A stretch of 64,000 nucleotides of DNA from Patescibacteria group bacterium (GTDB taxonomy: Bacteria > Patescibacteriota > Minisyncoccia > Phycocordibacterales > UBA12079): positions 11,677 to 75,676 of the forward strand of contig JAYEKM010000008.1 in assembly GCA_034661035.1 (NCBI GenBank). Reading direction: 5' to 3'. Positions 13,237 to 63,421 of the stretch are shown here, in pieces. A program made the position numbers and the translations under genes. Every line of letters starts with the position of its first letter. The stretch's first letter is position 1. A model generated the notes under the pieces. It saw only the letters and a list, made by a program, of their open reading frames with translations, ran no database searches and was not told where the DNA came from.

Positions 13237-14310
13237 TTAATACAAATACTGACGTTTATTACTTTTATGCTGATCAAAATCAACAGCATAATGCATATTC
13301 CCATAATCATCTGATAGATAAAAGAGATAATCGGAACCAACTGGTGTAACTGTCGCTAACAGTGACCATAAACTTGGATTGGCAATCGGTCCTATTGGAA
13401 GGCCTTTATTAGTGTACGTATTATAAGGAGATTCAACCTTTAAATCTTCTAAACTCAGCTGATAAGTGTTTTTTCCTATAATATAAGGAAAGACTGCGTC
13501 AACTTGAAGAGGCATACCAATCTCAATTCTCTTCCATAAAATTCCAGCTATCACCCTCTTAGATTTCAAGGTCCTAGCTTCTTTTTCTAAGATAGAAGCC
13601 ATAATTACAATGTCCTTTATATCCATACCTGAAGCTTCTATTTGCTCAGAAATCTCTTCAATTTTATTATAAAAATTTTCTTTCATGGTAGTGATAACAG
13701 CTTCTGGTGTAACTGTAGGTAAAAAATAATAGGTATCAGGGAATAAAAAACCTTCTTCAGCTTGAGCCACTTCTATAAATTCTTCCTTATCAAATTCTGG
13801 GAATTTATCATTAAGTAAATTTGCCATATCAAAAATAGTTAAACCTTCCACAAACATTATTTTCGTCGGAGTAATACCATAAATAGCAGAAGTAGTTCTC
13901 CATAAAACTTTAACTACTGAGCATCTTTCTTCAAAAAAATAATCCCCAGCCATAACACTACGGTCGTTCATCAATACTTTAGCTAAACCACTAAACACTG
14001 AAGCTGATTTAATTACGTGTTTTTCCTCTAGAACAGCAGCAACCTCATTAAGGGTCATCCCTTCTTCAACTCTAATAATAGACCCCACAGGAAAATCGCC
14101 TGGAGATAATATTAAAGAAAAATAAAGGAAAGACAATGACACAACACTAAAAGCTGTTAAGTTAGTTCTCAGCTTAATCTTGGGCAGTTTCCTAAGAACA
14201 GAAATTTTTATGTAATTTAGGAAAGTCGCTACCTTACGGAAACTTCCGATAAAAAAGTTTTTCAAAAGAATTTTACTATTCCTTGGATTATAGTTATTTA
14301 GGTTAAACAT
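13237..14310 (-). CDS. mltG: endolytic murein transglycosylase MltG (YceG family)
   Basis: N-terminal TM segment, EEGFLFPDTYYF motif and YceG-like fold. Confidence 0.8.
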   Translation of the reverse strand: MFNLNNYNPRNSKILLKNFFIGSFRKVATFLNYIKISVLRKLPKIKLRTNLTAFSVVSLSFLYFSLILSPGDFPVGSIIRVEEGMTLNEVAAVLEEKHVIKSASVFSGLAKVLMNDRSVMAGDYFFEERCSVVKVLWRTTSAIYGITPTKIMFVEGLTIFDMANLLNDKFPEFDKEEFIEVAQAEEGFLFPDTYYFLPTVTPEAVITTMKENFYNKIEEISEQIEASGMDIKDIVIMASILEKEARTLKSKRVIAGILWKRIEIGMPLQVDAVFPYIIGKNTYQLSLEDLKVESPYNTYTNKGLPIGPIANPSLWSLLATVTPVGSDYLFYLSDDYGNMHYAVDFDQHKSNKRQYLY

Positions 14311-26388: not shown

Positions 26389-26431
26389 AAAAGTCTATAA
26401 AGGCCAACGTCTATAAAGTCTTTATAAAACC
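26389..26431. repeat. IVS-like repeat arm (left), overlaps the 3' end of the four-helix-bundle gene
   Basis: aaaaGTCTATAAAGgccaacGTCTATAAAGTCtttataaaacc; supplies codons IKTL and the TAG stop. Confidence 0.6.
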
Positions 26432-26755: not shown

Positions 26756-26800
26756 ACTTTTTACTTTATAGACTTTATGAACTTTCGACTGTAACATCCA
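26756..26800. repeat. IVS-like repeat arm (right), inverted relative to 26389
   Basis: tactttttACTTTATAGACTTTATGAACTTTCGACtgtaac. Confidence 0.6.
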
Positions 26801-27227
26801 TTTTATCAAGTTTACCTTTTTCTGCAACAAAAGACTTATCCTTCCTCAATTTTAAAAGAATGAAATAAGCCAGCAACCAACCCAACATATCCATTAAAAT
26901 ATCCAGACTAGTGTCTAAGTTAAAGTTAGATTGATAAATTGAAGCCTTTGCTAAATATTCAAAAATTTCCCACAAAATACCTACTGTTATTACAAAAAAT
27001 AAGGATGTATAGAATATAGAAAGTTTTTCTTTAATTCTTCTAAAATATTTCGATAGAAAAAAAATATAATAAGAAAGCAAAGCCACCCAAAAACCACCAA
27101 GAAAGTGCATAATTATGTCAAACCACCAAAATTTCCAATATAGGAAAAAGTGGCTAGCAAGAATATTTAAAATAAAGATTATATAAATAAAAACAACCAG
27201 AAAAATTGAAAAAGTTTTTTTGCTCAT
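26775..27227 (-). CDS. hypothetical small membrane protein (about 150 aa, 4 TM)
   Basis: Start trimmed to MSKKTFSIFLVV; the conserved 5' module sits directly upstream. Confidence 0.5.
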   Translation of the reverse strand: MSKKTFSIFLVVFIYIIFILNILASHFFLYWKFWWFDIIMHFLGGFWVALLSYYIFFLSKYFRRIKEKLSIFYTSLFFVITVGILWEIFEYLAKASIYQSNFNLDTSLDILMDMLGWLLAYFILLKLRKDKSFVAEKGKLDKMDVTVESS

Positions 27228-28544: not shown

Positions 28545-28660
28545 GAGTAAAAAGTCTATAAAGTCCTTAAAGTAGAAAGTAAAAAAAATGGGAAATTGAC
28601 TTCGCCAATTTCCAATTTTTTTACTTTATAGACTTTCGACTTTATAAACTTTCGGCTCTT
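28545..28660. repeat. ORF-less IVS-like palindromic element with a central bidirectional terminator
   Basis: Arms aaaaGTCTATAAAGTCCTTAAAGTAGAAAGT / ACTTTATAGACTTTCGACTTTATAAACTTTCGG; centre A8-GGAAATTG-ACTTCGC-CAATTTCC-T7. Confidence 0.65.
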
Positions 28661-31600
28661 CTTTATAAGCTCTTAAATATAAAACCGGTATCATTACTAG
28701 TGTAACCACAGTCGCAAAAGACAAACCAAAGATAATTGAAAAAGCTAGAGGACCCCAAACAGAGGAAGCAAGAATTAGAGGAGTCATTCCTATAACTGTG
28801 GTTAAAGTGGTAAGGAGCACTGGCCTCAAACGAAGAACTGAAGATTCTATAACGATATCCTTAAGAGGAAGTTCTCTTTTCTCTTTTCTCATGGAGTTCA
28901 TTGTGTCAATTAAGATAATTGCATTATTGACAACAATTCCTGCCAGAGCTATCACACCGATAAAAGAAGGGAAAGAAAAAGTGCTCCCTATTATAGTTAA
29001 TCCAACCAAAACACCAATCAAAGACATCAAGACACCCGCCACTATAAAGAAAGTTTGTCTGAAAGAGTTAAATTGTAATATCAAAACAACAATAACCAAG
29101 ATTAGCCCAGCCACCAAAGCCATCAGCATTTCAGTAAAGGTCTTAGCAATATCTTCATTTTCACCTCCTGTTTTTAACAAAACACCCTCAGGAAGGAAAG
29201 TCTCGTCATCTTTTATAATGGATTGGAATTCTTTATTAATTTCAACAGCATTAGCTCCCTCTTTTAATTGAGATGAAGCGGTAGCAATCCGATCCCCTTC
29301 TTCATGGTTGATAGAAGCATTACTTTTTTGAATTGTCACATCCATCAACGAGCCTAAAAGAATTACTCCATTAGGGGTATTAATTTCCATCTGCCTAATA
29401 GAATCAACTGTAGTCCTTGAAGTTAAATTTGGATCAACATTATCTATATTAAGATTTAGTTTGACCAAAACATCAATATCTTCACCACCTGCTTTTATGG
29501 TGGTTGCGTCTACCCCATAAATAGCTGTCCTTAAAATTGAAGCAACTATTACTGGCGATAAATTACTTTCTGATAATTTAGACCTATCTATTTTCAAAAC
29601 AAATTCTGTAACATTATTTTTCATACTATTGGTTACATCGATTGTTCCAGGAATATTTTTCAAAATATCTTCGGCTTTAACAACAACTCTTTCCAAATCA
29701 TCCAAGTCAGCCCCGAAAAATTTTATTAAAACAGGAGCTCCTGAAGGAGGACCCGAACCAGGCTGAGCAACAGTCACTTTGGCTATTCTAATATCTGCTA
29801 ATTCAAACCTTAAATCTTCTATCAATTCTAGACTGTTTTTTTCTCTATCCTTCTTCAATAGAACAGTGATATTCCCTAACTTTTCGCCAGAACTACTACC
29901 AGAATTACTAAAAGCATTTGAGGAACCAACTGACGTAGCAAATGATTCAATATAAGATTGGTTATATAAAATTTCTTCCACTGCTCTGACAGCCAAATCA
30001 GTTTCTTCTAGAACCGTTCCCTGCAACATTTCTACATCAACATAAATAAACTTAGAATCTTCTGGGGGGAACAAGGAGGTTTTAAGCAAGCCAGTAATTG
30101 GTAAAGAGAAAGAAAGAATTAAAGCAATCACCATCGACCACAAAAATCTTTTTTGAAACTTCTTACTACCTAAAATATATTCTAATTTCTTTTTATACCA
30201 ACCTCTTAATAATTCATTATATTTCTTTTGTTTCTGAAATAATTTACTATTACTATTTCCGTTCCTTTTTAAGACTACTAAAGCAATTAAAGGAACAATA
30301 CCTAAAGCTACAAAAAGTGAAGCAAATAAAACAAAAATTAATGTATAGGGAATTCCCTTAACAAATTCGCCCATAATGCCAGACAAAAAGAATAAAGGAA
30401 AAAAGGCTGCCACTGTAGTCAACGTTCCAGAAGTTAAGGGTATATAAAATTCTTTAATAGTTTTAATAGCTGATTCGTTACCACTCAGTCCTTGTTTAAT
30501 TTTGACGTGCATAGCTTCAGTTACCACAATAGCGGAATCCACCAAAATTCCTACTGCCAAAATCAGAGCAAATAAAGAAATAAAATTAAGAGTGTTACCT
30601 GTAAAATACAAACCTGTAAAAGAAACCAAGAACGAAAGAGGGACTGCTAAACCAGCAATTAAAGATTCTCTCCAACCAATAGCAAAAAATAAGATTAGTG
30701 TAACTAAGAAAACAGTAGCTAATCCCGACATAGATAAATTTCTTAAGTCATCGTTTAAATACTCGGCCATATCGATTGAAATCAATACCTCAGCCCCTTC
30801 CAAAATACCACCTTCCTGCAGTCTAGCTAATTCTTTCTTAACACTTTTTACAATAGTACTGATATCACTCCCCCTCTTCTTAAAGATAGACAATGAAACA
30901 GCTTGCTGAGAAGGTTGCCCATTGACACTAACTCTAGAAAATGAAGATTTTTGACTAACTCCGTCAGAGATAAAAGCCAGATCTCTAACATAAATAATCT
31001 CCCCCCCGATACTTGAAATAGGGATATCTTTAATCTCATTTGAATCAACAAGATCCCCTTTAAATTTTAAAGGATACTTGATTCCTTGTATCTCTATGTC
31101 TCCTATTGGTAAAGAAGAATTAGCTTTAGAGATTGCATTAACAATATCTGTAATTCCTAAACCAAATTTAGAAAGAGCTGATTGGTTTACAACCACCTGA
31201 ACTTCCCTGTCTGAAATTCCACTAATACCTATTTTAGAAACACCATTAACAGACTTTAATTCATCTTTGACGTCTTCGGATAATTTAATAAATTCAGTTA
31301 CCGGTAAATCACTGGAAATAGATAGCATCAGAATAGGTTGATCGGCAAAATTTATATCTGAAATAACTGGGTCTTTAGCTTCACTAGGTAATTCTGATTT
31401 AACTTTATCAACTTCATCTTTTACTTTTTGAATAGATTCCTGGATATCAGCGTCAGCATCAAATTCAACTACTACTGAAGAAAACCCCTCTCCTGAGGTA
31501 GAGGTAATCTTATTTAATGTATCCAAATTGTTAATTAATTGATCTTCTATTTTATCGGTTATCAATCTTTCTGTGTCTAAAGCTGAGGACCCTGGTAAAA

Positions 31601-31751
31601 ATGTAGAAACAATAGCTAAAGGAATTTGTATTTCAGGAGAAGATTCTTTTGTGATATTAACTAAAGAAAAAATCCCTGCCATAATTAAGGAAGAAACTAA
31701 CAATATAGTAAAACTTTTTTTCTTTATAAAAAATATCCAGAAATTTTGCAT
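28626..31751 (-). CDS. RND efflux transporter permease (AcrB/HAE-like)
   Basis: 1041 aa, 12-TM RND architecture, AcrB-like N-terminal pattern. The last codons KVYKVESL-stop lie in the repeat arm. Confidence 0.8.
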   Translation of the reverse strand: MQNFWIFFIKKKSFTILLVSSLIMAGIFSLVNITKESSPEIQIPLAIVSTFLPGSSALDTERLITDKIEDQLINNLDTLNKITSTSGEGFSSVVVEFDADADIQESIQKVKDEVDKVKSELPSEAKDPVISDINFADQPILMLSISSDLPVTEFIKLSEDVKDELKSVNGVSKIGISGISDREVQVVVNQSALSKFGLGITDIVNAISKANSSLPIGDIEIQGIKYPLKFKGDLVDSNEIKDIPISSIGGEIIYVRDLAFISDGVSQKSSFSRVSVNGQPSQQAVSLSIFKKRGSDISTIVKSVKKELARLQEGGILEGAEVLISIDMAEYLNDDLRNLSMSGLATVFLVTLILFFAIGWRESLIAGLAVPLSFLVSFTGLYFTGNTLNFISLFALILAVGILVDSAIVVTEAMHVKIKQGLSGNESAIKTIKEFYIPLTSGTLTTVAAFFPLFFLSGIMGEFVKGIPYTLIFVLFASLFVALGIVPLIALVVLKRNGNSNSKLFQKQKKYNELLRGWYKKKLEYILGSKKFQKRFLWSMVIALILSFSLPITGLLKTSLFPPEDSKFIYVDVEMLQGTVLEETDLAVRAVEEILYNQSYIESFATSVGSSNAFSNSGSSSGEKLGNITVLLKKDREKNSLELIEDLRFELADIRIAKVTVAQPGSGPPSGAPVLIKFFGADLDDLERVVVKAEDILKNIPGTIDVTNSMKNNVTEFVLKIDRSKLSESNLSPVIVASILRTAIYGVDATTIKAGGEDIDVLVKLNLNIDNVDPNLTSRTTVDSIRQMEINTPNGVILLGSLMDVTIQKSNASINHEEGDRIATASSQLKEGANAVEINKEFQSIIKDDETFLPEGVLLKTGGENEDIAKTFTEMLMALVAGLILVIVVLILQFNSFRQTFFIVAGVLMSLIGVLVGLTIIGSTFSFPSFIGVIALAGIVVNNAIILIDTMNSMRKEKRELPLKDIVIESSVLRLRPVLLTTLTTVIGMTPLILASSVWGPLAFSIIFGLSFATVVTLVMIPVLYLRAYKEEPKVYKVESL

Positions 31752-31860
31752 AATAATTGTTTAGTCTAAAGTCCTTAATATCCATAAAGCCGAAAGTGAA
31801 AAATTTGCTTTGCAAATTTTTCTTACCTTATGGGCTTTTGACTTCATAGACTTTCGACTA
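31752..31860. repeat. second ORF-less IVS-like palindromic element between the RND and MFP genes
   Basis: Arms tAGTCTAAAGTCCTTAATATCCATAAAGCCGAAAGTG / GACTTCATAGACTTTCGACT; centre AAATTTGC-TTT-GCAAATTT. Confidence 0.6.
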
Positions 31861-33460
31861 TTTGTCCTTCTTTCAATCCTCTCGCATCTATAACAATTTC
31901 CATATCAGCTGTGACACCTTCTTTTATAATTATTTTTTCTCCTAAGATAGGACCTAAAATTACAGGATGAGAAATCAATTTATTTCCTTCACCCACTGTA
32001 AAAACGGTTGTGTCAGCAGATCCAATCTTTAGAGCTGAAATCGGAACAGAAAGTTCTGTTAATTCTTCTTCAACTTCTTGAAAAATTCTTTCAACCAACA
32101 AAGAAACTGACTGTCCATTAGTCAAAACCATATCTGAATCTTTTAAGGTAACCTCCACTTTTATCTTTTTTGTTTTGTTGTCTATGGCAGGAGCGATATT
32201 TTTAACTTCTCCTTGCCATTTAGAACCAACTAAAACCTTAGAACCAACTTCAACATCATCTCTATCTTCTTCTGTAATATAGGTAACTACCTCTAAAGAT
32301 TTATTATTGGCAATACTTACTACAGGAGTAAAAGCTGAAACAAAATCACCCTTTTCTAAATTAAGGATATTAATAGTTCCACTAATAGAGGCTCTAATAA
32401 TTGTTTTCTCTAAATTAGCGTAAGCTGATTGCAGACCTGCTTCAGCTTGTTTTAATTGAGCTTCTGCTGAGATAACGTCTTCTGATCTCCCCCCTGTTTG
32501 AGCCTGTTCATAATTCAACTCAGCAATTTCAAAGTTTGAGTAAGCCCCATTCAAACTATTCTTAGCTGTAGACAAAGCTGTTGCAGATGTGTTGATCACA
32601 GTTCTGGTTGTACTTATATTAGTTTTCCATGTAGTGATAGTTGTTTCTGATAAGTTTGAAGTCGGAGTTAGGATATTTACAGCCAAAGCTAATTTATCAA
32701 GAAAAACTCTAATGGAATTAATATTTGACTTTCTTTTATCCAATTCCCCTATTAAATCATCTTCTACATCAAATGTAGTTAGTGTATCTGACCACTCCTC
32801 TAACATTTCTTCTAAAAGCAATCTTCTCCACTCAAGATCAATTTCTAATTGAGAATCAACCACAGGGAAAATTACTTGTGGATCATCTCCTCGGGCGTCT
32901 CTAAACATAGCGTCCATTTTATTTCTAATAGAGTCATCAGCTTTAGCAAAAGAATCGTTCAAAGTGTTAACAACTGATATTTTGGTTTCAGTTAAAGTAT
33001 TTTGAACATTATCTAGAGTGGTTTTAAGAATAGAAGTCTGTTCATCTCTACCTCCTTTTTTTATCTTATCTAAACCTGCTTGAGCAACTTCAACACTGGC
33101 CTCTGCTTGAGTCACAGCTGATTTTTGTGTCCAATTGTCTAATTCACCAATAATTTGATTAGACCAAACAGTATCGCCTAATTTTTTGTAAACCCCAATT
33201 ACTTCTCCTGATATTTGAGAATAAATATTAGCAGAAGATTGTGACTGAACTTTTCCTAATAAAGGCAATGGATCTTTATTCAAAGAAAGATTCCTAACTG
33301 ACATAGTAGCAACTTGTCTAACATCAGAAGAATCAATATCTTGATCCCCATTTTCCTGAACAACCAATCTCTGATAAAAGATAATTGTTAAAATAGCTAA
33401 AATAGTGAAAACTATAATAACTTTATTACGACCTAACCCTTTATTTCTTAAATCTAACAT
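31844..33460 (-). CDS. RND efflux periplasmic adaptor (membrane fusion protein, HlyD/AcrA family)
   Basis: N-terminal TM, long coiled-coil, C-terminal beta-barrel-like region. Start trimmed to ATG 33460; the longer ORF would translate the GC palindrome. Confidence 0.65.
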   Translation of the reverse strand: MLDLRNKGLGRNKVIIVFTILAILTIIFYQRLVVQENGDQDIDSSDVRQVATMSVRNLSLNKDPLPLLGKVQSQSSANIYSQISGEVIGVYKKLGDTVWSNQIIGELDNWTQKSAVTQAEASVEVAQAGLDKIKKGGRDEQTSILKTTLDNVQNTLTETKISVVNTLNDSFAKADDSIRNKMDAMFRDARGDDPQVIFPVVDSQLEIDLEWRRLLLEEMLEEWSDTLTTFDVEDDLIGELDKRKSNINSIRVFLDKLALAVNILTPTSNLSETTITTWKTNISTTRTVINTSATALSTAKNSLNGAYSNFEIAELNYEQAQTGGRSEDVISAEAQLKQAEAGLQSAYANLEKTIIRASISGTINILNLEKGDFVSAFTPVVSIANNKSLEVVTYITEEDRDDVEVGSKVLVGSKWQGEVKNIAPAIDNKTKKIKVEVTLKDSDMVLTNGQSVSLLVERIFQEVEEELTELSVPISALKIGSADTTVFTVGEGNKLISHPVILGPILGEKIIIKEGVTADMEIVIDARGLKEGQIVESL

Positions 33461-33475
33461 ATTTTTCTTGTTCGC

Positions 33476-33495
33476 CCTGCCTGCCGGCAGGCAGG
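33476..33495. promoter_or_regulatory. 20-bp perfect GC-rich palindrome 16 nt upstream of the MFP start (candidate operator or 5' hairpin)
   Basis: CCTGCCTGCCGGCAGGCAGG with outer TTCGCCC/GGGCGAA; about 80% GC in a roughly 30% GC genome. Confidence 0.45.
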
Positions 33496-33608
33496 CTTGG
33501 GCGAAATTATATCTACCTTGCAAAAATTACTGGGGTATTATACCAAAAATAAGTGAAAAAGATAGATTTTCTCCTAAAAAATGGTAAAATAACACTTACA
33601 TAAACAAT

Positions 33609-52844: not shown

Positions 52845-53900
52845 TTATTTTTGATAGATAAAGATAATTTTTTTAATAAGGTCCTCTAGATTGTGACTCC
52901 TTTCAACCTCTTTTCTTAAATCTAATTTAATTTTTTCCTTTTCGTGTTCAGACAGATTAATTATTCCTATTATTTTTTGTGATAAATCAGAGCTATCTTT
53001 TAATTTAAAGAATAATTTATCTTGGTGGACACCAAAAACATTCTTTGATGAATCATTACTAGAAATTGTTATTAAGCCACAGGACATAGCTTCCAAGATA
53101 GTTTTGTCTAAACTGCCCGTATGACTAGTATTTACAAATAAGTTAGACTCTTGCAAATAATTAACAATATTATTTGTAGGGACTGGGCCAATAAAATTTA
53201 TTACCTCTTCTAAGCCGTCATTTTTAACTTTCTTTTTTAAGCTTTCCAAGTATTTTTCTTGACCTGCTTTACCCACACCCCCAATAATATCTAATTCAAT
53301 TTTTGAATTATATTTTTGCAAGATTTTTATTGCGTCAATTAATGTCTCATAATCTTTGATAGGAGAAATCCTACCAACGGTAACAACCCGAAAGGCCTTA
53401 TTTTTAATAAGGCTATCTTTACTTATAAATTGTTCTACATCAATTCCATGCCCTGTGATATTTAATTTCTTAGTTTTCAAACGAAACGATTCGGGAGTAG
53501 CTGAAAAAATAATATAAGTTAATTTTTCGGCCAATCTTAGCTTTAAATCGACACTTTTATGCATATACCAAAGTCCTATCTTTTTACCCATTAAACGCCA
53601 AAATAAGCCTCCTAGAACAATATACTCCGGGTTCATATGAACAAAGACGTTATCGTAATTTTTTCGTTCAGACCAAATATACTTATAAAAATTAAAAGCA
53701 TACTTAAGGCGTGATTTCCCCTGTTCCTTTCCTAAGGATAAGACTTTCACATTATTAGGTAAGTCGTAATCCCTTGCCTCTAAGGCTATTACGATTACCT
53801 GTTCACAGTGTTTTGCAAATTCATTAACCCACCCATGAAAAAAACCGAGGACACCATCATCATTTTTATCTACTTTTTGTGTAAGTATTAATAGTTTCAT
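52845..53900 (-). CDS. family 4 glycosyltransferase
   Basis: NTSHTGSLDKTILEAMSCGLITISS (E-x7-E region). Confidence 0.75.
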   Translation of the reverse strand: MKLLILTQKVDKNDDGVLGFFHGWVNEFAKHCEQVIVIALEARDYDLPNNVKVLSLGKEQGKSRLKYAFNFYKYIWSERKNYDNVFVHMNPEYIVLGGLFWRLMGKKIGLWYMHKSVDLKLRLAEKLTYIIFSATPESFRLKTKKLNITGHGIDVEQFISKDSLIKNKAFRVVTVGRISPIKDYETLIDAIKILQKYNSKIELDIIGGVGKAGQEKYLESLKKKVKNDGLEEVINFIGPVPTNNIVNYLQESNLFVNTSHTGSLDKTILEAMSCGLITISSNDSSKNVFGVHQDKLFFKLKDSSDLSQKIIGIINLSEHEKEKIKLDLRKEVERSHNLEDLIKKIIFIYQK

Positions 53901-54160
53901 ATTTTAGAATTAATGAAATACGATTTGAGCCTATTTTGTAAAAACATTCTACCATGGTAAGTCTTCAAATACTTCTCTCTTTTTATAGCATCATCTTCAT
54001 CTAAACATGATTCATAATACAATAAAATTAAAGGTTTTCTATGTTTAGTTGAATTCACCAGACCTGTATTATGTTGCTCAAATCTTAATTTTAAATTTTT
54101 TGTAGCTCCTGTATACCATTTACCATCTTTTTCGCTTTGTATTATGTGAGTATATATCAT
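53897..54160 (-). CDS. small GIY-YIG nuclease-domain protein (87 aa)
   Basis: MIYTHIIQSEKDGKWYTGATKNLKLRFEQH..LLYYESCLDEDDAIKREKYLK. Its ends overlap both neighbouring GT4 genes by 4 nt. Confidence 0.7.
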   Translation of the reverse strand: MIYTHIIQSEKDGKWYTGATKNLKLRFEQHNTGLVNSTKHRKPLILLYYESCLDEDDAIKREKYLKTYHGRMFLQNRLKSYFINSKI

Positions 54161-55372: not shown

Positions 55373-55900
55373 CTAGTCCCGCGAAGGCGCTTTTTGTTTT
55401 TCTAGCTTCTTTAATTCACTCCTCACATCTTCCAAATACTGAATTGCTCTTTTCCAACCGCAAGCTTTTCTTAACAGAAAAGAAGTTTTCTTTCTATTAG
55501 GACTTAAAGCAACCTTGAATTTATTTTTGTTTTCTAAATATTTAACTAAACTAGCGAAATCTCCATCACTCGTTATTAAAATAGCATTATCATATTCTAA
55601 CAACAAATCAACAGTTGTTAATGTTAAGTCAACGTCAACATTACCTTTTGGTTTCCCATTACTTTTTTTTGAAATTTCTTTAAAAGAAATTTCAAAGCCA
55701 GCATTTCTTAACAAGGAATAAAATTTTTCATTTTCTTTTATGTACCCTATAAACCAAAAAGCTTTAACAACTTTATACTTATCTTTTAAATAAATTCTTA
55801 ATTTAAAAATATCTACCGCCCAACCATCATCTTTCGTACCAAGATACAAGTTCTGAGCATCTATAAAAGCATAATTATTTTCTTTGTTTTTATTTTTCAT
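55373..55900 (-). CDS. NYN-domain (LabA-like PIN-fold) protein, paralogue 1
   Basis: NNYAFIDAQNL..NVDVDLTL..ILITSDGDFASLV; the C-terminus and stop sit in a GC-rich hairpin. Confidence 0.7.
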   Translation of the reverse strand: MKNKNKENNYAFIDAQNLYLGTKDDGWAVDIFKLRIYLKDKYKVVKAFWFIGYIKENEKFYSLLRNAGFEISFKEISKKSNGKPKGNVDVDLTLTTVDLLLEYDNAILITSDGDFASLVKYLENKNKFKVALSPNRKKTSFLLRKACGWKRAIQYLEDVRSELKKLEKQKAPSRD

Positions 55901-57152: not shown

Positions 57153-57683
57153 CTACAAGGTTTCGTCCTTGTAGGGCCTTTTCTTTTTATAAGAAAGCTT
57201 CTTATCTAAATTGTTCATAAACCTTAAATATGGTCTAACTATTTTAAATCTCAAAAGAGCAGAAAATTTAAAGAAGTTCGGAATCAAAACCGCTTTTAGC
57301 TTATTCTGTTCTAATAGATATTTGACCAAACAATAAAAATCCCCATCTCCACTTATAATTATTGCTTTATCAAAATTAGGATATTCAATCATTGTTTGTA
57401 ATACTAACTCAGCATCAACGTTCCCTTTAGTAGTTCCATCCTTATATCCCAAAGTTGGTTTAAAAACACAAATAAAGCCAGCTTCTTGTAAGAACTTATA
57501 TAAATCATTATTTCCCTCTACGAAACCAATAAATAGAAAAGCTTTATTAATCTTATATTTTTCTTTCAGATAAACACGAAACCTAGCAAAGTCCAATTTC
57601 CAACCTAAAGACTGAATACTTAAATTTAAGTTCTGGCTATCTATAAAAGCATAATTATTTTTTTTATCTTTCTTTTGCATCAT
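57153..57683 (-). CDS. NYN-domain (LabA-like PIN-fold) protein, paralogue 2
   Basis: NNYAFIDSQNL..NVDAELVL..IIISGDGDFYCLV; about 45% identical to paralogue 1; the C-terminus overlaps hairpin CCCTACAAGG-N6-CCTTGTAGGG. Confidence 0.7.
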   Translation of the reverse strand: MMQKKDKKNNYAFIDSQNLNLSIQSLGWKLDFARFRVYLKEKYKINKAFLFIGFVEGNNDLYKFLQEAGFICVFKPTLGYKDGTTKGNVDAELVLQTMIEYPNFDKAIIISGDGDFYCLVKYLLEQNKLKAVLIPNFFKFSALLRFKIVRPYLRFMNNLDKKLSYKKKRPYKDETL

Positions 57684-58881
57684 ATAATTTTTCTCTGTTG
57701 GTAAAAAGAATCATTTCTTTCATCTCCCGTGCGATCTTCTCCCAGTCATACTCTTTTACGACCATTTGATAAGCTTGTTTTACGACGCGATCTCTAAGGT
57801 CTTGGTTGCCAAGTAAAAATTTCACTTTTTCAGCAATTGATTCTGGATCTTTAACCTGACAAAACAAACCCGTCTCATTATCTTTTAGAAAATCAGGGAT
57901 TCCTCCAACAGAAGTCGCAATGACAGGTGTTTTGGTTATCATAGCCTCCAAAAAAGAATTACCTAACCCCTCTGACAAAGAAGGTCTAATAAAGATATCT
58001 GAGATTTTCAAGTATTTAACTAGTTCATCCTGTTTGATATAAGAAATAAAAATAACCCTGTCTTCCAAGTTTCTTTCCGTTGTTATTTTTTCTAAATTTG
58101 TTTTATCTTCTCCATCCCCTATTAAAATAAGTTTGATATTATCTGGCAAATAGGTCAGCGCCTTAATTAAATAATCTAAACCATTCTTGTAAGTCAGTCT
58201 ACCTGTGTGGATTATAAACCTATCTTCCAATTGTTTACCTAGCTCTTGTTCAAGTTTTCTTAGATCTTTTATTGAAGATGTTTGTGAAAATACTTTTATA
58301 TCAACCCCGTTAGGAATAACCTCAATCGGGCATTGAGCCCCCAAAGTCTTCGCCCAATCAGCCAAATAATTACTAATACATTGAATTTGATCAGCTCTTT
58401 TGAAGATATTCTCAAACTGACCTTTTATAAATTTAGTTCTTTTCTGAATATATTTTTGACTATCACCCTCTTGTAAAGTAAGTAAGAAAGGAACTTGTGG
58501 ATTACTTTTTTTAAATTTTGATGCAGCTAATCCCGCGTAACTTGCCATAATCGCCCAAATTGAATCATAATTCCCTTGTTTATTTAGTTTTTTTGCCATA
58601 TATTGACCAAAAAAAGCAAAGAATACCTTGTCAACCATCGGATGACCTATACCCACTCTAAAGACAGTTATATTGCCAATTTTCTCCTTCTGAGCAAGAT
58701 TTTTATCCATTTTAGCCGTTATCATATGAAATTCAATATCAGTTAATCTGTCTGTTATTTCTTTAACAGCTACTTCTGCCCCTCCCACAAAAGGATAATA
58801 GGCAGTCGAAAACATAAGTACTTTCTTAGACATATTATTATTGTAACAGAAAACCTTAAGTTTAGAAGAATTATTATTCAT
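57664..58881 (-). CDS. family 4 glycosyltransferase
   Basis: RPSLSEGLGNSFLEAMITKTPVIATSVGG; the likely start is the internal MSKKVLMFSTAYYP. Confidence 0.75.
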   Translation of the reverse strand: MNNNSSKLKVFCYNNNMSKKVLMFSTAYYPFVGGAEVAVKEITDRLTDIEFHMITAKMDKNLAQKEKIGNITVFRVGIGHPMVDKVFFAFFGQYMAKKLNKQGNYDSIWAIMASYAGLAASKFKKSNPQVPFLLTLQEGDSQKYIQKRTKFIKGQFENIFKRADQIQCISNYLADWAKTLGAQCPIEVIPNGVDIKVFSQTSSIKDLRKLEQELGKQLEDRFIIHTGRLTYKNGLDYLIKALTYLPDNIKLILIGDGEDKTNLEKITTERNLEDRVIFISYIKQDELVKYLKISDIFIRPSLSEGLGNSFLEAMITKTPVIATSVGGIPDFLKDNETGLFCQVKDPESIAEKVKFLLGNQDLRDRVVKQAYQMVVKEYDWEKIAREMKEMILFTNREKLYDAKER

Positions 58882-60328
58882 CTAATTTAGTAGCAAAAAC
58901 AACTCCGGTGATGGCTAAAGAAACAATTCCCATCAAAGAAATCGTCCACTTATTGATAAGAGGTTCATCAAAATCATCAACAGGGACTTGTTGCTGAAGA
59001 TCAGATGAAGTTGCTGTCTCTGTTTTATCTTCTAGAATTACCTCTCCATCTTCTTCTGGCTCAACCTCTTCAATTAATGGTTTTGTGGCTTTATTAATAT
59101 TTGCTACTTGAGGAACAACAGGAATCGGAACAACGATTTTTTGATCTATCACAGACTCTTTCCTATAATCGAAAGCTATACTACCATTTGGGTATAACAA
59201 TTGAATATCGTCACCTTCTTTTGGAAAAAGATTAGTAACATGACTTGATAATTTTAATTGATTATCAGCTAACATTATTGTATTTTTGGGAAATGTCCAA
59301 AAATTATCACCGACCTTTAATCTCCACCAAGATAAGTTTAATTCATACTGCGAAGGATTATTAATGTTTACAAAAGAATTGGAATCGTCAAACAAAACAT
59401 CTTTGATAAAAACTCCTGAAGAAATTACTTTTGTTTTAACCCTGTCCATAGCCGAATGTTTCCCTGAAGAAACCTCTAGGGTAATTAAATATTCACCTGG
59501 ATATTGAAAAGCGTGTAAAACATTTTGACCAGCAACCCTTGAACCATCACCAAAAGACCAACTGTACTTAGCATTCTCAATAGGTTGGTTTTCTAATCCA
59601 AGAGATTCCCCTTTAAACATAAAGTCTGCCCCTGCAATAGGAATATCTTGAAAAGAAATAATATGAGCCTTAATCTGACTAACAAAAAGAATACTACCAG
59701 ACCCTAGATCTAAACCTTGATCTTCTTGCTCACTAGGAGGAATTATTTCATCGTTTTCCTCAACAGGTTCATCTGGTTGGTTTCCTCCATTTGTACAAGC
59801 TGGAGTAGGAGTACCGGATTGCCAAGTCGAATCAATTTTTTGTAGTGAGTCACCATCACCGTTAGCTCCCCATTCTGATAAGTAATCTACACTGTCAACA
59901 TCAATCAATTCATCATCCCTTAAAATTAAACCTTCGCCAGAATTAGAAAGAGAAAAAGCTGAATCAAAAACTAAACCAGAAAAATTAGGATAATCTACCT
60001 CAAATTTTTCAAAGTTATCAATAATCAATGCATAAGTTTTAGTAGGTAAAACAAGAGAATCCCCTTCAATAATTGACTTTATTCTATGGTTAGTTTCTGC
60101 CTCAAACACCTTCCAGCCTGAAAGATCAACATCCTCTGTAGTTGTATTATAAATTTCAATCCATTCCCTCCCACTATCGCTACCTTCTAAATTGTACATT
60201 ACTTCTGTTATTTCAATTTGGGAAAAAACAAAACTAGGAGACAAAAATAAAACAGACAAAGCAGTTACTAAAAGTAACTGCTTTGTCTGTTTTAAATTTT
60301 TATTTATTCTCATCTGGCTTCTTAACAT
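58874..60328 (-). CDS. secreted lamin-tail-domain (LTD) + PKD-domain protein with C-terminal membrane anchor
   Basis: Signal peptide; LTD ITEVMYNLEGSDSGREWIEIYN..LSGW; PKD YSWSFGDGS..HAFQYPGEYLITLEV; C-terminal TM WTISLMGIVSLAITGVVF. Confidence 0.7.
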   Translation of the reverse strand: MLRSQMRINKNLKQTKQLLLVTALSVLFLSPSFVFSQIEITEVMYNLEGSDSGREWIEIYNTTTEDVDLSGWKVFEAETNHRIKSIIEGDSLVLPTKTYALIIDNFEKFEVDYPNFSGLVFDSAFSLSNSGEGLILRDDELIDVDSVDYLSEWGANGDGDSLQKIDSTWQSGTPTPACTNGGNQPDEPVEENDEIIPPSEQEDQGLDLGSGSILFVSQIKAHIISFQDIPIAGADFMFKGESLGLENQPIENAKYSWSFGDGSRVAGQNVLHAFQYPGEYLITLEVSSGKHSAMDRVKTKVISSGVFIKDVLFDDSNSFVNINNPSQYELNLSWWRLKVGDNFWTFPKNTIMLADNQLKLSSHVTNLFPKEGDDIQLLYPNGSIAFDYRKESVIDQKIVVPIPVVPQVANINKATKPLIEEVEPEEDGEVILEDKTETATSSDLQQQVPVDDFDEPLINKWTISLMGIVSLAITGVVFATKLDE

Positions 60329-62012
60329 ATAACATTTTCTCTAAAACATCCTTGGGTATTTCTTTCGTCTTATCATTCACATGTTCATTTTTGTATTTTC
60401 TTTGGTTAAATTTTTGTTGAGGTACAGATTTCAAATCTTTTTTATCAAAAACTTTTTTTACTTCTTCTTTATCTTCCCCCCGAAAATTTTGAATGGCATT
60501 AGATAAAGCTTTTTTCAAAGCATTTCCATTGTTATTCTCAAGAGTTTTCTTCTCTTTCCTGAAAGTAACATTATTAATTCTTTGGTAATCTTTTCTACCT
60601 TTTAAATCATTCAAACTGAGAGAGGGAGAGTTCTTAGATTCGTTTTTTTGGAATGAACGTTTGTCATTTTTTTGAGGTTCTCCTATCGGGGATTCCCCTT
60701 TCTTCTGACTTTGTAAATTGCTTTGATTATGCCATTCAGATATTTTTTTCTCTACCTGTTCCTTTGGTTGAGTAAATTGTTTTCTAGAGAACTCTATAAC
60801 CTCATCTTTAAAAGAAAGAGTTGGTTTTTTAATAGGAGGCAAAGTTCTAGCAGAAAAAGGAGTAGAACTAATCCCGTCTATCATCAACTTCAAATAAATT
60901 TGAGCAAAGCCTAAATTAACAATATCCTCAACTAAAAACTCAGGAGAAAACTCCTTTTCTAGTAACTCCGCATCTGTAGCTCCTACTCTAAAAGCAACCA
61001 TTGTCCCCACATTACCAAAAACAGCCGCGTGCACTTTCTCTGGCATCTGCTCTATGTATTGATGGGCAATAGTAAGATTTAACTTATATTTTCTTGCTTG
61101 AGATAAAATATCAGCAAAAGAATCATTTGCTAAATTCTGAAACTCATCAATATACAAATAAAAATTAGGTAATTTGGCCAACTCATTTTGACTAACATCA
61201 GCTCTACTCATCGCTGCTAAATATATCTTTGTAGTTAGCATGGAACCTAATAAATCAGCGTTGGCTTCCCCTACTTGTCCAATGGACAAATTAACTAAAA
61301 GTATTTTTTTATTATCTATAACATCACGAAAATTAAAAGATGATTTTTCTTGTCCGATTATATTTCTTATCAAAGGATTTGATGTAAATTGACCCACTTT
61401 ATTTAAAATAGCAGCATAGGCATCCCTTCTATACCTATCATCCCACCCAGCAAATTCTTCAGTCCAAAAAGCTTTTACTGACGGATCTGTAATGTTATTT
61501 ACTACCTTTTTACGGTATTTTGCATCCGTGAAAATCTTAGTCATTCCCAACATGGTCGATCCGGGGTACTCTAAAAGAGCCAACAAAGTATTGTTAGTAA
61601 TGTGTTCCATACGATCGGAAAAAGTATCTTCTCCCCAAATCTTCTTAAAAGCAGATAAAAGCCCTTGAGCTACTAAATGTCTTTTGTCTGGACCAACGTC
61701 CTCCATAACGTTAAAAGAGATCGGATTATTTACATCAAAAGGAGCAAAATAAATCACATCTTCAATTCTGTTTTCAGGAACATAGTCTAAAAACTTTTTG
61801 ACAGACAGTCCATGTGGGTCAATAAAACAAATCCCATTTCCACTCTGAATATCTTGAACTGCCATGTTTTCTAACATAGTAGACTTCCCCATACCAGTTT
61901 TCCCAATAACATAAAAATGTCTAGTTCTATCGGAAGCTTTTATTCCAAAAGAAGTTCGCTTATTACGACGGTCTATCCCGGCAAAATATGTAATTGGATT
62001 TTTTTCTTCCAT
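60300..62012 (-). CDS. VirD4/TraG/HerA-type P-loop ATPase (AAA_10/DUF87-like) with a disordered K/E-rich tail
   Basis: Walker A HFYVIGKTGMGKST, Walker B-like FYLYIDEF; about 150-aa low-complexity C-terminus. Confidence 0.5.
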   Translation of the reverse strand: MEEKNPITYFAGIDRRNKRTSFGIKASDRTRHFYVIGKTGMGKSTMLENMAVQDIQSGNGICFIDPHGLSVKKFLDYVPENRIEDVIYFAPFDVNNPISFNVMEDVGPDKRHLVAQGLLSAFKKIWGEDTFSDRMEHITNNTLLALLEYPGSTMLGMTKIFTDAKYRKKVVNNITDPSVKAFWTEEFAGWDDRYRRDAYAAILNKVGQFTSNPLIRNIIGQEKSSFNFRDVIDNKKILLVNLSIGQVGEANADLLGSMLTTKIYLAAMSRADVSQNELAKLPNFYLYIDEFQNLANDSFADILSQARKYKLNLTIAHQYIEQMPEKVHAAVFGNVGTMVAFRVGATDAELLEKEFSPEFLVEDIVNLGFAQIYLKLMIDGISSTPFSARTLPPIKKPTLSFKDEVIEFSRKQFTQPKEQVEKKISEWHNQSNLQSQKKGESPIGEPQKNDKRSFQKNESKNSPSLSLNDLKGRKDYQRINNVTFRKEKKTLENNNGNALKKALSNAIQNFRGEDKEEVKKVFDKKDLKSVPQQKFNQRKYKNEHVNDKTKEIPKDVLEKMLYVKKPDENK

Positions 62013-62034
62013 TCTTATTATTATAAGTTATTTA

Positions 62035-63240
62035 TCAATTTGGTAGAAGTGCTCCAGTTGTATATCTATTACTTGCAGACCAAAGCATCCAGCTATCTAA
62101 ACCAGCGTCATAGGTAGCATTAATCTGAGCACGAACTTCTGCTGGTCCATAATCAGCTCCTAAATCAAAATCTTGTAACCAAGGTCTCAATTTTTTAGGG
62201 TCCATACCAGCATTTTTAGCCTTTATTACCGCTTTATCCATTGAGTATTTCACCACTTCATACGGATAAGCAGCTGGGTTATCTAGGCCGATGAAATTTT
62301 TTGGATAATGGGAGGGATAGACCATTGGAGCAATAAAATCAAAAGAAGGTAGAGCATACTCCAGAATTTGTCCAATATTTAAATCATCATCATTCGTGGT
62401 TACCATACCAAATAAATCAGCAGATAAAACAAGGTCCAAGTCACTTAACTCAGCGTCTAAATAGGTAAAAAATTCACGTAATATTTTTGCCTTACCAGTA
62501 TCTACATCAGCAATAATTCTTTCTTCACTAAAAGGATAATAAATCTCAGACATATCTCCGTCCGAAGGAAAGCGAATATAATCAAAATTAATTTCATCAA
62601 AACCAATTTGGTATGAATATCTTGCTAAATCAATTATGTACTCCCAAACTTCAATGGAACCAGCATCCAACCAACTAATTCCTTTATAGTCTTTCCAAAT
62701 ATCACCGTCCTTCGATTTTTTTACGGCTAAGTCAGGGCGTTGCTCCACAAGATGAGGGTCTTGAAAGACAGAGATTCTACCAATCACATAAATATTTTTA
62801 CTATGTAAATATTCCAAAAATTCTTTTATATCTGGAATACGATTGATGGGAGCGTCGTACCTTTCTAAATTTTCATCGCCCTGAATCATAAAAGAAATTT
62901 GTCCCGTATAATCTTTGATATCTATGATTATGGAATTTATTTCTGTATTATCAACAATCTTGACCAAATTATCCCTAATATTTTTTGTACCAGCTACCCA
63001 ACTGGTCATGTAAATAGTCTTAACTTGCTCAGGTAAAGAGATGTGAGAAACCACCTCAGCTTCTTCTTCTCCAGCTACCTCTATCATTGAAGCTTCATTA
63101 AAAAAATTTATCGTAGAAACTGTGCCATAAACAATAAAAAACCCTGTCATTAGAAAACAGAGAAGAACACCACTTATTGTTATTTTTAAAATTTTTAGTT
63201 TATTATTCTTCTTTGGTTGTACAGTCATCATTTTCCACAT
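62035..63240 (-). CDS. membrane-anchored putative glycoside-hydrolase-like TIM-barrel protein (DUF4015-like)
   Basis: N-terminal TM; IIIDIKDYTG..YVIGRISVFQD.. pattern recalled for DUF4015. Confidence 0.4.
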   Translation of the reverse strand: MWKMMTVQPKKNNKLKILKITISGVLLCFLMTGFFIVYGTVSTINFFNEASMIEVAGEEEAEVVSHISLPEQVKTIYMTSWVAGTKNIRDNLVKIVDNTEINSIIIDIKDYTGQISFMIQGDENLERYDAPINRIPDIKEFLEYLHSKNIYVIGRISVFQDPHLVEQRPDLAVKKSKDGDIWKDYKGISWLDAGSIEVWEYIIDLARYSYQIGFDEINFDYIRFPSDGDMSEIYYPFSEERIIADVDTGKAKILREFFTYLDAELSDLDLVLSADLFGMVTTNDDDLNIGQILEYALPSFDFIAPMVYPSHYPKNFIGLDNPAAYPYEVVKYSMDKAVIKAKNAGMDPKKLRPWLQDFDLGADYGPAEVRAQINATYDAGLDSWMLWSASNRYTTGALLPN

Positions 63241-63421
63241 AGACGTTATCTTGTAATTCTTCTTGTTTGTCTGTAACTAAACTTACTTTTCTAGAAAGAT
63301 AAAGTGACTGCACCAAAATAAGTAATCCTAGAATAGGGTAAATGAAGATGTCCCACGTGTTAGGAAACCCTAAAAATGGGAATAAAATCACTAAAAAACC
63401 TAAAATTGATAACCTTTTCAT
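63203..63421 (-). CDS. hypothetical small membrane protein (72 aa)
   Basis: Two hydrophobic helices; overlaps the downstream gene start; may be spurious. Confidence 0.3.
   Translation of the reverse strand: MKRLSILGFLVILFPFLGFPNTWDIFIYPILGLLILVQSLYLSRKVSLVTDKQEELQDNVYVENDDCTTKEE

Follow-up and report, generated by a model that had tools for sequence, protein, structure and literature searches.

Type IV coupling proteins, among them TrwB of R388, VirD4, TraD/TraG, DotL and Cag-beta, combine a RecA-like domain bearing Walker A and B motifs with an inserted all-alpha domain, and many of them end in a disordered C-terminal tail. Homologues of these proteins are widespread in Patescibacteria. A recent survey (Quinonero-Coronel et al. 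2025, PMC12102498) counts 5,713 VirD4-type homologues in 2,918 of 3,035 genomes of the phylum, with only 148 of the homologues near virB4, and its authors hold exaptation of these "orphan" homologues possible. Related motors include the VirB4 ATPases (TrwK of R388 and VirB3-VirB4 fusions) and the HerA/FtsK translocases, the latter sharing the ASCE P-loop superfamily with the ATPase described here.

The DNA analysed (hereafter, the window) is a 64-kb stretch of a Patescibacteria (Paceibacteria-type) chromosome. Near one end are three minus-strand genes encoding a DUF4015 protein, a P-loop ATPase and a secreted protein with a lamin-tail domain (LTD) and a PKD domain. The existence, coordinates and shared strand of these genes, as given in a first-pass annotation, agree with the list of open reading frames (Table 1). 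They are transcribed in the order DUF4015, ATPase, LTD/PKD and then GT4, the first gene of a glycosyltransferase run. Spacing is tight throughout, with a 22-nt gap between DUF4015 and ATPase, a 29-nt overlap between ATPase and LTD/PKD, and an 8-nt overlap between LTD/PKD and GT4. The trio was originally placed downstream of the glycosyltransferase genes on the same strand; the strand is correct, but since every gene is on the minus strand, the trio is in fact upstream, where a large glycan gene cluster, spanning 21.5 to 58.9 kb of the window, has its 5' end.

Table 1. Features of the window, with coordinates counted from its first nucleotide
Feature	Position	Strand	Basis
MltG/YceG endolytic transglycosylase	13237..14310	-	Pfam YceG 2e-65; TIGR00247 7e-51
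Stand-alone DUF8128 (PF26449) protein, 418 aa	14314..15570	-	precomputed Pfam assignment
Sigma-70 region-4 HTH + RNAP-delta-like HARE-HTH protein, 340 aa	15632..16654	-	Pfam, NCBIfam
GT4 glycosyltransferase, 405 aa, first of the minus-strand GT run	57664..58881	-	Pfam Glycos_transf_1 3e-44
LTD/PKD surface protein, 484 aa	58874..60328	-	Pfam
Terminator-like hairpin, 27-nt arms and U-tract	60243..60299	-	folding, shuffles, covariation
Soluble TrwB/VirD4-type P-loop ATPase, 570 aa	60300..62012	-	Pfam, NCBIfam, alignments, AF2 model, Foldseek
Membrane-anchored extracytoplasmic DUF4015 protein, 401 aa	62035..63240	-	PF13200
Small two-TM protein, 72 aa, acidic C-terminus, VYVEND motif	63203..63421	-	ORF; TM scan

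The initial description of the ATPase as a coupling-protein/HerA-type P-loop enzyme with a disordered, K-rich tail is borne out by Pfam, alignments and a predicted structure. Its Walker A (GKTGMGKST, aa 37-45) and Walker B (YIDEF, aa 287-291, with D289/E290) motifs are invariant in an alignment of 79 homologues. Pfam matches include TrwB_AAD_bind (2e-9, above cutoff) and TraG-D_C (1.5e-5), while DUF87 falls under its cutoff. The core (aa 1-430), with AF2 pLDDT values mostly >85, comprises the nucleotide-binding domain and the all-alpha domain, the latter corresponding to a helical block at approximately aa 111-233 of the model. The tail (aa ~431-570) contains 29 K, 12 E and 17 N, has a pLDDT <50 indicative of disorder, and retains the short motifs SLxDL, LKxALS and a C-terminal EVPExVL. 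The best Foldseek match of the model is TrwB deltaN70 (E 6e-13, TM 0.61, ~415 aligned columns), followed by DotL/IcmO, HerA (a significant match) and Cag-beta. No VirB4 chain occurs among the top 50 fold matches; the protein is closer to the TrwB type, which has an all-alpha domain, than to VirB4. Likeness to HerA extends to the weak DUF87 match and to PADLOC (mad8 1e-13, weak HerA). In contrast to HerA-NurA and the defence-associated HerA proteins, no NurA, Sir2 or DUF4297 partner is found near the gene, and a HerA-based or MADS defence system was rejected since the mad8/HerA similarity of the ATPase is isolated, with no other mad partner present. Also ruled out was a competence or pilus ATPase of the PilB/PilT/ComGA/GspE family, as the protein has no Pfam match to T2SSE (PF00437) and the window has no pilus genes or pilin motif.

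More than 8000 homologues of the ATPase exist; the best 120, at 52-100% identity, are from Patescibacteria and are named T4SS DNA-binding domain-containing proteins. This is the same NCBI product name as that of the orphan homologues in PMC12102498, and the ATPase is almost certainly one of them. Several properties set it apart from canonical coupling proteins. For instance, a hydrophobic-segment scan of its 570 residues detected no TM segment, and it has no relaxase or Mpf genes nearby in the window. Moreover, identity is at a housekeeping level (52-80%) across the class, with only 15-16% identity to TrwB.

Where a membrane anchor might come from is suggested by more distant relatives. Homologues at 45-52% identity, in other lineages including Berkelbacteria-named genomes, carry an N-terminal extension of 350-440 aa and form single proteins of 950-1350 aa. 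These fused forms begin with a TM helix or hairpin, continue with DUF8128, and also carry the TrwB/VirD4-type nucleotide-binding and all-alpha domains. The sole match of the extension in the window is the stand-alone DUF8128 protein, whose gene is ~45 kb from that of the ATPase. PF26449 is assigned to this exact protein and to its best 120 homologues; likewise, all of the best 120 relatives of one fused protein (P0212) have PF26449, and most also have PF10412 or PF01935. When the two halves are concatenated, they are collinear with five fused proteins (E = 0) and meet at the linker. The sequences show that the gene is split in Paceibacteria, this genome included, exactly at the inter-domain linker. 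A similar split occurs in GCA_900089805.1, where the two genes share a strand and have ~61 kb between them. Both halves are also matched by a single profile, PHROG 5156 (positions 68-366 and 402-818), which includes gp156 of Bacillus phage G and SPO1-like phage proteins, and tblastn detects genes of 23-28% identity in large Bacillus myophages. Unlike the pair in the window, members of PHROG 5156 are viral, single-polypeptide and only distantly related, and their function is unknown.

The DUF8128 protein has TM helices at its N-terminus (aa ~2-55), followed by a predicted cytoplasmic alpha+beta domain. It has no sequence-level match to any PDB chain. The best fold match of its model is VirB4 (TrwK), with low TM-scores of ~0.33 and 7-8% identity, and the match appears to fall in the N-terminal domain of TrwK. 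Because of this match, the pair looks like a split machine composed of a VirB4-N-domain-like anchor and a VirD4-like motor. The CagE_TrbE_VirB and AAA_10 profiles match neither half, and no VirB3, VirB6 or VirB8 genes neighbour them in the window. The anchor would be supplied in trans by DUF8128, or in cis in the fused relatives, and its cytoplasmic domain of ~350 aa is absent from canonical coupling proteins. A full-text literature search for DUF8128 or PF26449 returned no paper, and the occurrence of a TM+DUF8128 module on distant relatives but as a separate gene here appears to be a new finding. The available part of PMC12102498 describes neither this module, nor the split and fused architectures, nor the neighbouring gene considered next.

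A gene for a sigma-r4/HARE-HTH protein lies directly upstream of the DUF8128 or fused gene in all seven loci inspected, and is the only neighbour common to the split and fused lineages. The encoded protein could be a DNA-binding adaptor or regulator. One distant fused relative adjoins a Replic_Relax gene, an integrase and an excisionase-type HTH. These neighbours, together with plasmid and phage relatives, are counted for a DNA-transfer ancestry.

From the sequence comparisons, the best-supported partner of the ATPase is the DUF8128 membrane protein rather than the adjacent LTD/PKD protein. We regard it as slightly better than an even chance that the ATPase serves as the cytoplasmic motor in a bipartite machine widespread in Patescibacteria, with membrane-anchored DUF8128 as the other half. 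Such a machine is probably a membrane-docked substrate translocase. By analogy with TrwB and HerA, the ATPase would form a RecA-like ring, dock at the membrane through DUF8128 and draw on NTP hydrolysis to translocate a polymer, for which nucleic acid is the likeliest candidate. It may serve as a distant coupling protein of a Patescibacteria T4SS, or have been exapted for a housekeeping role. In Southlakia, a t4cp homologue is reported to be dispensable for epibiotic growth (PMC12102498), which would fit poorly with such a role at the core of the cell if that homologue is orthologous to this gene. A more specific version, which we put forward tentatively and consider doubtful, is that TM+DUF8128 and the TrwB-like ATPase, along with the sigma-r4/HARE-HTH protein, make up a dedicated, vertically inherited nucleic-acid translocase that is architecturally intermediate between VirB4 and VirD4 and could serve in DNA or RNA import or export. 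If so, it could move the DNA or RNA on which nucleotide-auxotrophic, epibiont Patescibacteria depend; a 2026 preprint (10.64898/2026.06.21.733656) reports the uptake route of host RNA as unresolved.

The genes that surround the two halves allow for other roles. In 80 related loci, the conserved core is DUF4015-ATPase-GT4, and an epimerase, GT2, GtrA and MurD are additional recurrent neighbours; no relaxase or VirB gene family is among these, nor in the window. DUF4015 precedes the ATPase on its strand in 58 of 64 Paceibacteria loci, and de novo clustering places it there in 64 of 80; this adjacency could reflect a real functional link. The protein itself matches PF13200 over nearly the whole profile (E 6e-97, positions 2-313 of 313) as well as the uncharacterized protein of PDB 4S1A (E 4e-43), and has one N-terminal TM segment (aa 15-44, N-in), in keeping with its earlier description as a membrane-anchored, TIM-barrel-like protein. 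PF13200 belongs to the glycoside-hydrolase-like TIM barrels, with putative catalysis. Downstream, a GT4 orthologue (38-73% identity) is found in 47 of 57 loci; the GT4 protein has no specific NCBIfam equivalog.

This neighbourhood suggests that the split ATPase could act in envelope or cell-wall glycan biogenesis, energising export or remodelling with DUF4015 and GT4 while the DUF8128 anchor acts with MltG. Envelope enzymes do adjoin both halves in Paceibacteria, as MltG/YceG is located 3 nt downstream of DUF8128, an arrangement repeated in L087, L088 and L093. The size of the nearby glycan cluster, the other conserved neighbours listed above and a Peptidase_M23 gene close to one fused gene are further points in its favour. 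However, the envelope neighbours are not retained in the fused lineages, MltG/YceG being kept in Paceibacteria only, and the sigma-r4/HARE-HTH gene alone is constant. Furthermore, the housekeeping gene for RsmI is equally syntenic with the ATPase across the 80 loci, and the presence of envelope genes needs no explanation beyond inherited gene order. Nor is any TrwB/HerA-type ATPase known to export glycans, and we judge a glycan role to be unlikely.

The first-pass annotation had proposed that the three adjacent genes could be part of a DNA-uptake or attachment apparatus. In its envelope-spanning form, the ATPase would power the apparatus, LTD/PKD would bind DNA or the host surface, and DUF4015 would open the wall. 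The parts described at the outset for the LTD/PKD protein are confirmed: it has a signal peptide (hydrophobic segment at aa 16-38), LTD, PKD and a C-terminal TM anchor (aa 460-483). Between PKD and the anchor come another LTD-like domain and an acidic, Pro-rich stalk. LTD (PF00932) is matched at aa 36-149 (E 7e-21, 75.1 bits; cutoff 34.3), with a second, weaker stretch, and an orthologue shows LTD-PKD-LTD. PKD (PF18911/PF00801) is matched at aa 251-301 by PKD_4 (E 1e-10, 41.8 bits; cutoff 27) and PKD (E 3e-8, 33.8 bits; cutoff 23.5), and this region also matches the PKD domains of the collagenases ColG and ColH. Like ExeM nuclease, with its N-terminal LTD, and ColG/ColH, the protein is built from Ig-like beta-sandwich modules and is secreted or anchored. 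Unlike them, it lacks a nuclease, protease or other catalytic domain and is tail-anchored by its C-terminal TM.

Tight same-strand packing, the DUF4015-ATPase adjacency and the consistent +1 position of LTD/PKD whenever it is present all accord with a three-gene apparatus, as do a type-IV-pilin-like gene found between DUF4015 and ATPase in 8 of the 80 loci and membership of the ATPase in a family that moves DNA in conjugation. Nevertheless, the LTD/PKD gene is an optional, lineage-restricted insert. Of the 57 related loci whose downstream sequence is long enough, only 18 have it, always between ATPase and GT4, and on the ATPase tree it is scattered patchily, clade by clade; in the roughly two-thirds of loci without it, GT4 directly follows the ATPase. 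In the lineage of this genome, the gene body is also parted from the ATPase by a covarying terminator-like hairpin, which starts immediately behind the stop codon of the ATPase gene and lies inside the signal-peptide codons of LTD/PKD. The MFE of this hairpin is -33.8 kcal/mol (z -11.4), and none of 200 shuffles folds as well. Sequence at the same position differs in L002-L005 and L008, yet 15 of 22 pairs stay paired via double changes. In addition, neither DUF4015 nor LTD adjoins the gene in fused-form lineages, and the whole 64-kb window is free of prepilin motifs and of genes for pili, competence or VirB proteins. The proposal is therefore unsupported, and we rate such an apparatus as quite improbable. 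LTD/PKD is a surface-displayed Ig-like protein and DUF4015 an extracytoplasmic, glycan hydrolase-like enzyme, and for both, the adjacent envelope/glycan genes are a better fit than a dedicated apparatus shared with the ATPase.

Still less probable is an FtsK-like housekeeping DNA pump, in which a membrane-anchored translocase would serve to segregate the chromosome or clear it at division. For a coupling protein the sequence is unusually well conserved, both within the class and relative to the fused forms, and the chromosomal, syntenic location, the membrane anchor with a disordered segment, and DNA-binding HTH and cell-wall genes as neighbours would all fit. Against this, the FtsK_SpoIIIE match in Pfam is non-significant, no FtsK gamma domain is matched in Pfam or NCBIfam, and the fold search ranks coupling proteins, not FtsK, highest.

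A remnant or component of anti-phage defence or of a mobile element, comprising a HerA-like ATPase, NYN nucleases and conflict-type GT4 enzymes, is very hard to credit: the PADLOC matches of the ATPase and of an NYN LabA-like protein (1e-6), the GT4-conflict Pfam matches, the interleaving of NYN and GIY-YIG genes with GT4 genes, and the phage and plasmid relatives are outweighed by near-universal occurrence in the phylum (PMC12102498), stable chromosomal synteny amid housekeeping genes, a window free of integrase and transposase, and blank PADLOC results for LTD, DUF4015 and DUF8128.

The gene for the small two-TM protein overlaps the start of DUF4015 by 38 nt, and a homologue occupies position -2 or -3 in 33 of the 80 related loci.

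From 53.9 to 64 kb, every ORF of the window is encoded on the minus strand, which places the trio of DUF4015, ATPase and LTD/PKD genes at the 5′ end of the glycosyltransferase (GT) genes, and not downstream of the GT operon as the first-pass annotation had it. The trio itself is real, and each domain originally named from the sequence was recovered by Pfam search. The signal peptide and C-terminal anchor of the LTD/PKD protein were confirmed by hydropathy scan, the DUF4015-like protein proved to be membrane-anchored as proposed, and the K-rich tail of the ATPase (29 K, 12 E and 17 N in residues 431–570) is indeed disordered in its AF2 model. A 22-nt gap lies 5′ of the ATPase gene, which overlaps the LTD/PKD gene by 29 nt; the latter overlaps the first GT4 gene by 8 nt. 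The small two-TM protein found at the start of DUF4015 had no family match; 33 of the 80 related loci encode it at this position as well.

Genes of the trio and their immediate neighbors, in the direction of transcription
Feature	Position in window	Strand	Remarks
RsmI methyltransferase, C-terminal part	63942-63562	-	First in transcription direction
72-aa two-TM membrane protein	63421-63203	-	Conserved acidic C-terminus (VYVEND); overlaps DUF4015 start
DUF4015 protein	63240-62035	-	Pfam DUF4015 6e-97; one N-terminal TM (hydropathy scan)
ATPase	62012-60300	-	Pfam TrwB_AAD_bind 2e-9, TraG-D_C 1.5e-5; no TM (hydropathy scan)
LTD/PKD protein	60328-58874	-	Pfam LTD 7e-21, PKD_4 1e-10; signal peptide and C-terminal anchor (hydropathy scan)
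GT4 glycosyltransferase run interleaved with NYN-domain genes	3′ of LTD/PKD gene	-	

The core of the ATPase (residues 1–430) shows exceptional conservation, and its Walker A and B motifs are invariant in alignments of homologues. Among 50%-identity representatives, 21,262 relatives were found at E<=1e-3, of which 5,646 remain at E<=1e-30; the best 120 of >8000 matches are 52–100% identical. The closest relatives derive from Pacebacteria/Parcubacteria-type MAGs, and one NCBI-named protein is 100% identical. Since sequence searches of the PDB yielded only P-loop-level matches to TrwB and DotL (E ~0.01), a structure model was required. The core of this model has a pLDDT mostly >85. The model matches TrwB deltaN70 best (E 6e-13, TM 0.61, ~415 columns); DotL/IcmO, HerA and Cag-beta rank next. 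Together with the Pfam matches, this upholds the original assignment to the coupling-protein type. As modeled, the protein is of the TrwB/VirD4 type and shares the all-alpha domain of that group, but lacks its N-terminal membrane anchor. Such genes are abundant in these bacteria. PMC12102498 counts 5,713 VirD4-type homologues across 2,918 of 3,035 Patescibacteria genomes, with just 148 located near virB4. Thousands of these “orphan” coupling-protein homologues thus lie outside the T4SS cluster and have no assigned role, and the authors regard exaptation as possible. The ATPase gene is a member of this known and widespread group. In Southlakia, the sole genetically tractable species, the T4SS is essential, and its gene cluster is without a recognisable coupling protein (PMC10633639).

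A putative partner emerged from the longer relatives of the ATPase. Relatives at 45–52% identity are 750–1350 aa long, with the ATPase starting at about residue 300–470 and the N-terminal extension opening with one or two TM helices. These extensions had no match in the copy of Pfam searched, which was without the PF26449 model. When they were searched against the window, exactly one match was obtained, a 418-aa ORF at 14314-15570 that aligned over its full length (E 4e-46 to 8e-34) and is DUF8128 (PF26449), a name taken from precomputed annotations. The concatenated DUF8128 and ATPase sequences produce a single collinear alignment of 810–857 aa with five fused proteins, at 38–41% identity, and the break between the halves falls exactly at the linker (“...APTNLPI*”, then “MEEKNPITYF...”). 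PHROG 5156 spans both halves independently (positions 68–366 and 402–818). The best 120 relatives of the fused protein P0212 all contain PF26449, in most cases together with PF10412 or PF01935; those among them with names belong to Berkelbacteria or unclassified Patescibacteria. These four lines of evidence tie the DUF8128 and ATPase halves together. The same split, with the same flanking genes, occurs in GCA_900089805.1, where the two genes lie ~61 kb apart on the same strand; DUF8128 was found within 8 kb of the ATPase in none of the 80 loci.

The DUF8128 model (pLDDT 82, pTM 0.78) consists of long N-terminal helices (residues 2–55) followed by an alpha+beta domain. Its best 11 Foldseek matches are all chains of TrwK, the VirB4 protein of R388 (E 8e-4 to 1e-2, TM ~0.33), while a profile search of PDB sequences returned nothing even at E 10. 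Because DUF8128 lacks a P-loop and its strands are predicted to pair as beta-hairpins, not in the RecA-type pattern, the match is attributed to the VirB4 N-terminal domain. With TM-scores this low and aligned ranges that were deduced, the resemblance is proposed with moderate confidence. If it holds, the fused protein would consist of a TM segment resembling VirB3, a module resembling the VirB4 N-domain and a motor of VirD4-like type. A literature search for DUF8128 or PF26449 found nothing, and the split architecture, the VirB4-like partner and a constant HARE-HTH neighbor appear to be previously undescribed.

This neighbor, a sigma-70 region 4 plus RNAP-delta-like HARE-HTH gene, lies directly upstream of the DUF8128 or fused gene in all seven loci inspected (the window and related loci L087, L093, L083, L084, L091 and L092). 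In three of the four fused-form loci (L084, L091 and L092), a second DUF8128 + T4SS-DNA_transf paralogue is located two genes upstream. The conserved cluster in these loci (L084, 1263-13237; L091, 1-10444; L092, 1-10087) encodes, in order, an uncharacterised protein of ~950–1160 aa, DUF5663, an uncharacterised protein of 350–600 aa, DUF8128 + T4SS-DNA_transf (~850 aa), an uncharacterised protein of ~170 aa, sigma-r4/HARE-HTH, and DUF8128 + TrwB-like ATPase. It could represent a dedicated multi-component system.

Conservation around the ATPase itself was assessed in the 80 related loci, drawn from species-representative genomes, by tblastn and de novo neighbor clustering. Of the 64 loci with sufficient sequence, 58 have DUF4015 upstream in the same orientation, and an orthologue of the first GT4 was recovered 3′ of the ATPase in 47 of 57. 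Only 18 of 57 loci carry the LTD/PKD gene, always between ATPase and GT4; elsewhere, GT4 follows the ATPase directly. The conserved core is therefore DUF4015-ATPase-GT4, and the LTD/PKD gene is a lineage-restricted insert, with a clade-wise, patchy distribution on the ATPase tree that co-varies with upstream RsmI. Further recurrent neighbors are an epimerase, GT2, GtrA, MurD and, in eight loci, a type-IV-pilin-like gene. The latter (~150 aa; prepilin motif FTLIELLVV) interrupts the DUF4015-ATPase pair, as in L014 (6717-7148), and recurs in L023, L036, L038, L057, L065, L076 and L079, mostly within one ATPase-tree clade. DUF4015, GT4, LTD and MltG are neighbors in Paceibacteria only.

The envelope/glycan setting suits both flanking products, the LTD/PKD protein as a tail-anchored, surface-displayed Ig-like protein and the DUF4015 protein as an extracytoplasmic glycoside-hydrolase-like enzyme. 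Literature searches found nothing on “lamin tail domain” with Patescibacteria, and DUF4015 in a single paper, solely as a fusion partner of YkyA. In the window, housekeeping genes including FtsA, FtsZ, TsaD, tRNA synthetases and YchF (1–21 kb) precede a very large surface-glycan cluster (21.5–58.9 kb). By Pfam annotation, the cluster includes an initiating sugar transferase, PAP2, Wzm/Wzt, NeuB with a CMP-sugar gene, many GT2/GT4/GT8/GT11 enzymes, methyltransferases, FdtA and DegT. A role of the ATPase itself in envelope biogenesis would match these surroundings, but the envelope-gene neighbors are not retained in the fused-form lineages, and the reading is considered unlikely. Somewhat less likely again is the three-gene DNA-uptake or surface-attachment apparatus envisaged in the first-pass annotation. 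The genes and domains it invoked exist, but neither conservation nor context supports the trio as such a unit: Pfam annotation of window ORFs of at least 100 aa revealed no pilus, competence or VirB genes, and a scan of all six reading frames of the window revealed no prepilin motif. LTD/PKD and DUF4015 neighbors should thus not be taken as parts of a secretion or competence system.

The analysis establishes the domain identities, the relationship between split and fused forms, the synteny statistics and the hairpin (described below); beyond these, the likeliest mechanism is one in which DUF8128 would anchor the ATPase motor. The ATPase would assemble as a ring, like TrwB and HerA, and would be held at the membrane by DUF8128, whose domain is placed in the cytoplasm because positive residues follow the TM and because it is fused to a cytoplasmic ATPase. 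The ring would move a polymer, most plausibly nucleic acid, and may be the coupling protein of the Patescibacteria T4SS, encoded at a distance from it, or have been exapted for another role. An FtsK-like pump, set beside the TrwB and DotL/IcmO fold matches, is a distinctly improbable alternative.

More distant relatives occur on mobile elements and in phages. A fused protein with two tandem ATPase modules (1227 aa) and a faint DUF8128 match (L085, 10001-14444; L086, 9616-14059) occurs in high-GC (64%), non-CPR sequence on an integrative element, adjoined by a Replic_Relax gene, an integrase and an excisionase-type HTH. Plasmid relatives reach 39% identity, with uninformative genomic contexts (Sulfitobacter, Priestia), and large Bacillus myophages (Bacillus phage G gp156, JN638751.1 91999-93213; SPO1-like phages) encode homologues 23–28% identical. 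These integrative-element, plasmid and phage relatives place the roots of the family in DNA transfer. That the ATPase is itself a defence or mobile-element remnant is highly improbable, and the defence-system reading was rejected.

Patescibacteria account for a large share of bacterial diversity and need hosts for nucleotides and lipids. To our knowledge, the passage of macromolecules across their envelope is little understood. The putative DUF8128 partner, the split/fused pair and the likeness to the VirB4 N-domain render the function of the ATPase testable: DUF8128 and the ATPase form a two-protein target for interaction, localisation and knockout studies, with the HARE-HTH protein as a candidate DNA-binding third component. 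The pair also adds one more data point on the VirB4-VirD4 relationship.

Directly after the ATPase stop codon, and within the signal-peptide codons of the LTD/PKD gene, lies a near-perfect inverted repeat (60243-60299; -33.8 kcal/mol, z = -11.4) whose arms measure 27 nt and which leads into a U-tract. The five closest LTD-carrying loci have hairpins of different sequence at the same position, and 15 of 22 pairs in the alignment are preserved via changes on both sides. This speaks for selection on an RNA or DNA structure, the simplest candidate being an intrinsic terminator or attenuator, and against a plain co-expression of the ATPase and LTD genes. In the full set of 80 loci, a terminator test 3′ of the ATPase stop gave 31% versus 18% of tested sequence windows at <= -20 kcal/mol; with this modest enrichment, the claim is confined to the window's own sub-lineage.

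Several other features of the glycan cluster merit mention. The GT4 genes have no specific NCBIfam equivalog that would name their substrate. They alternate one by one with a pair of NYN-domain (LabA-like) paralogues and a small GIY-YIG gene (57153-57683, 55373-55900 and 53897-54160, all minus strand). Mobile or selfish nucleases are one possible reading of these genes, RNA-processing factors another; NYN orthologues in loci L004 and L005 are 79–83% identical and more conserved than their neighbors. The cluster of this presumed single-membrane bacterium also encodes a 1041-aa AcrB-type RND pump together with a HlyD-type adaptor (28626-33523, minus strand). A RelA/SpoT gene (HD, synthetase and TGS; 23974-25554, plus strand) lies between the initiating sugar transferase/PAP2 and Wzm/Wzt genes, and a gene assigned to PF05635, the family of 23S rRNA intervening-sequence proteins (26411-26830, minus strand), occurs in a window that is itself without rRNA.
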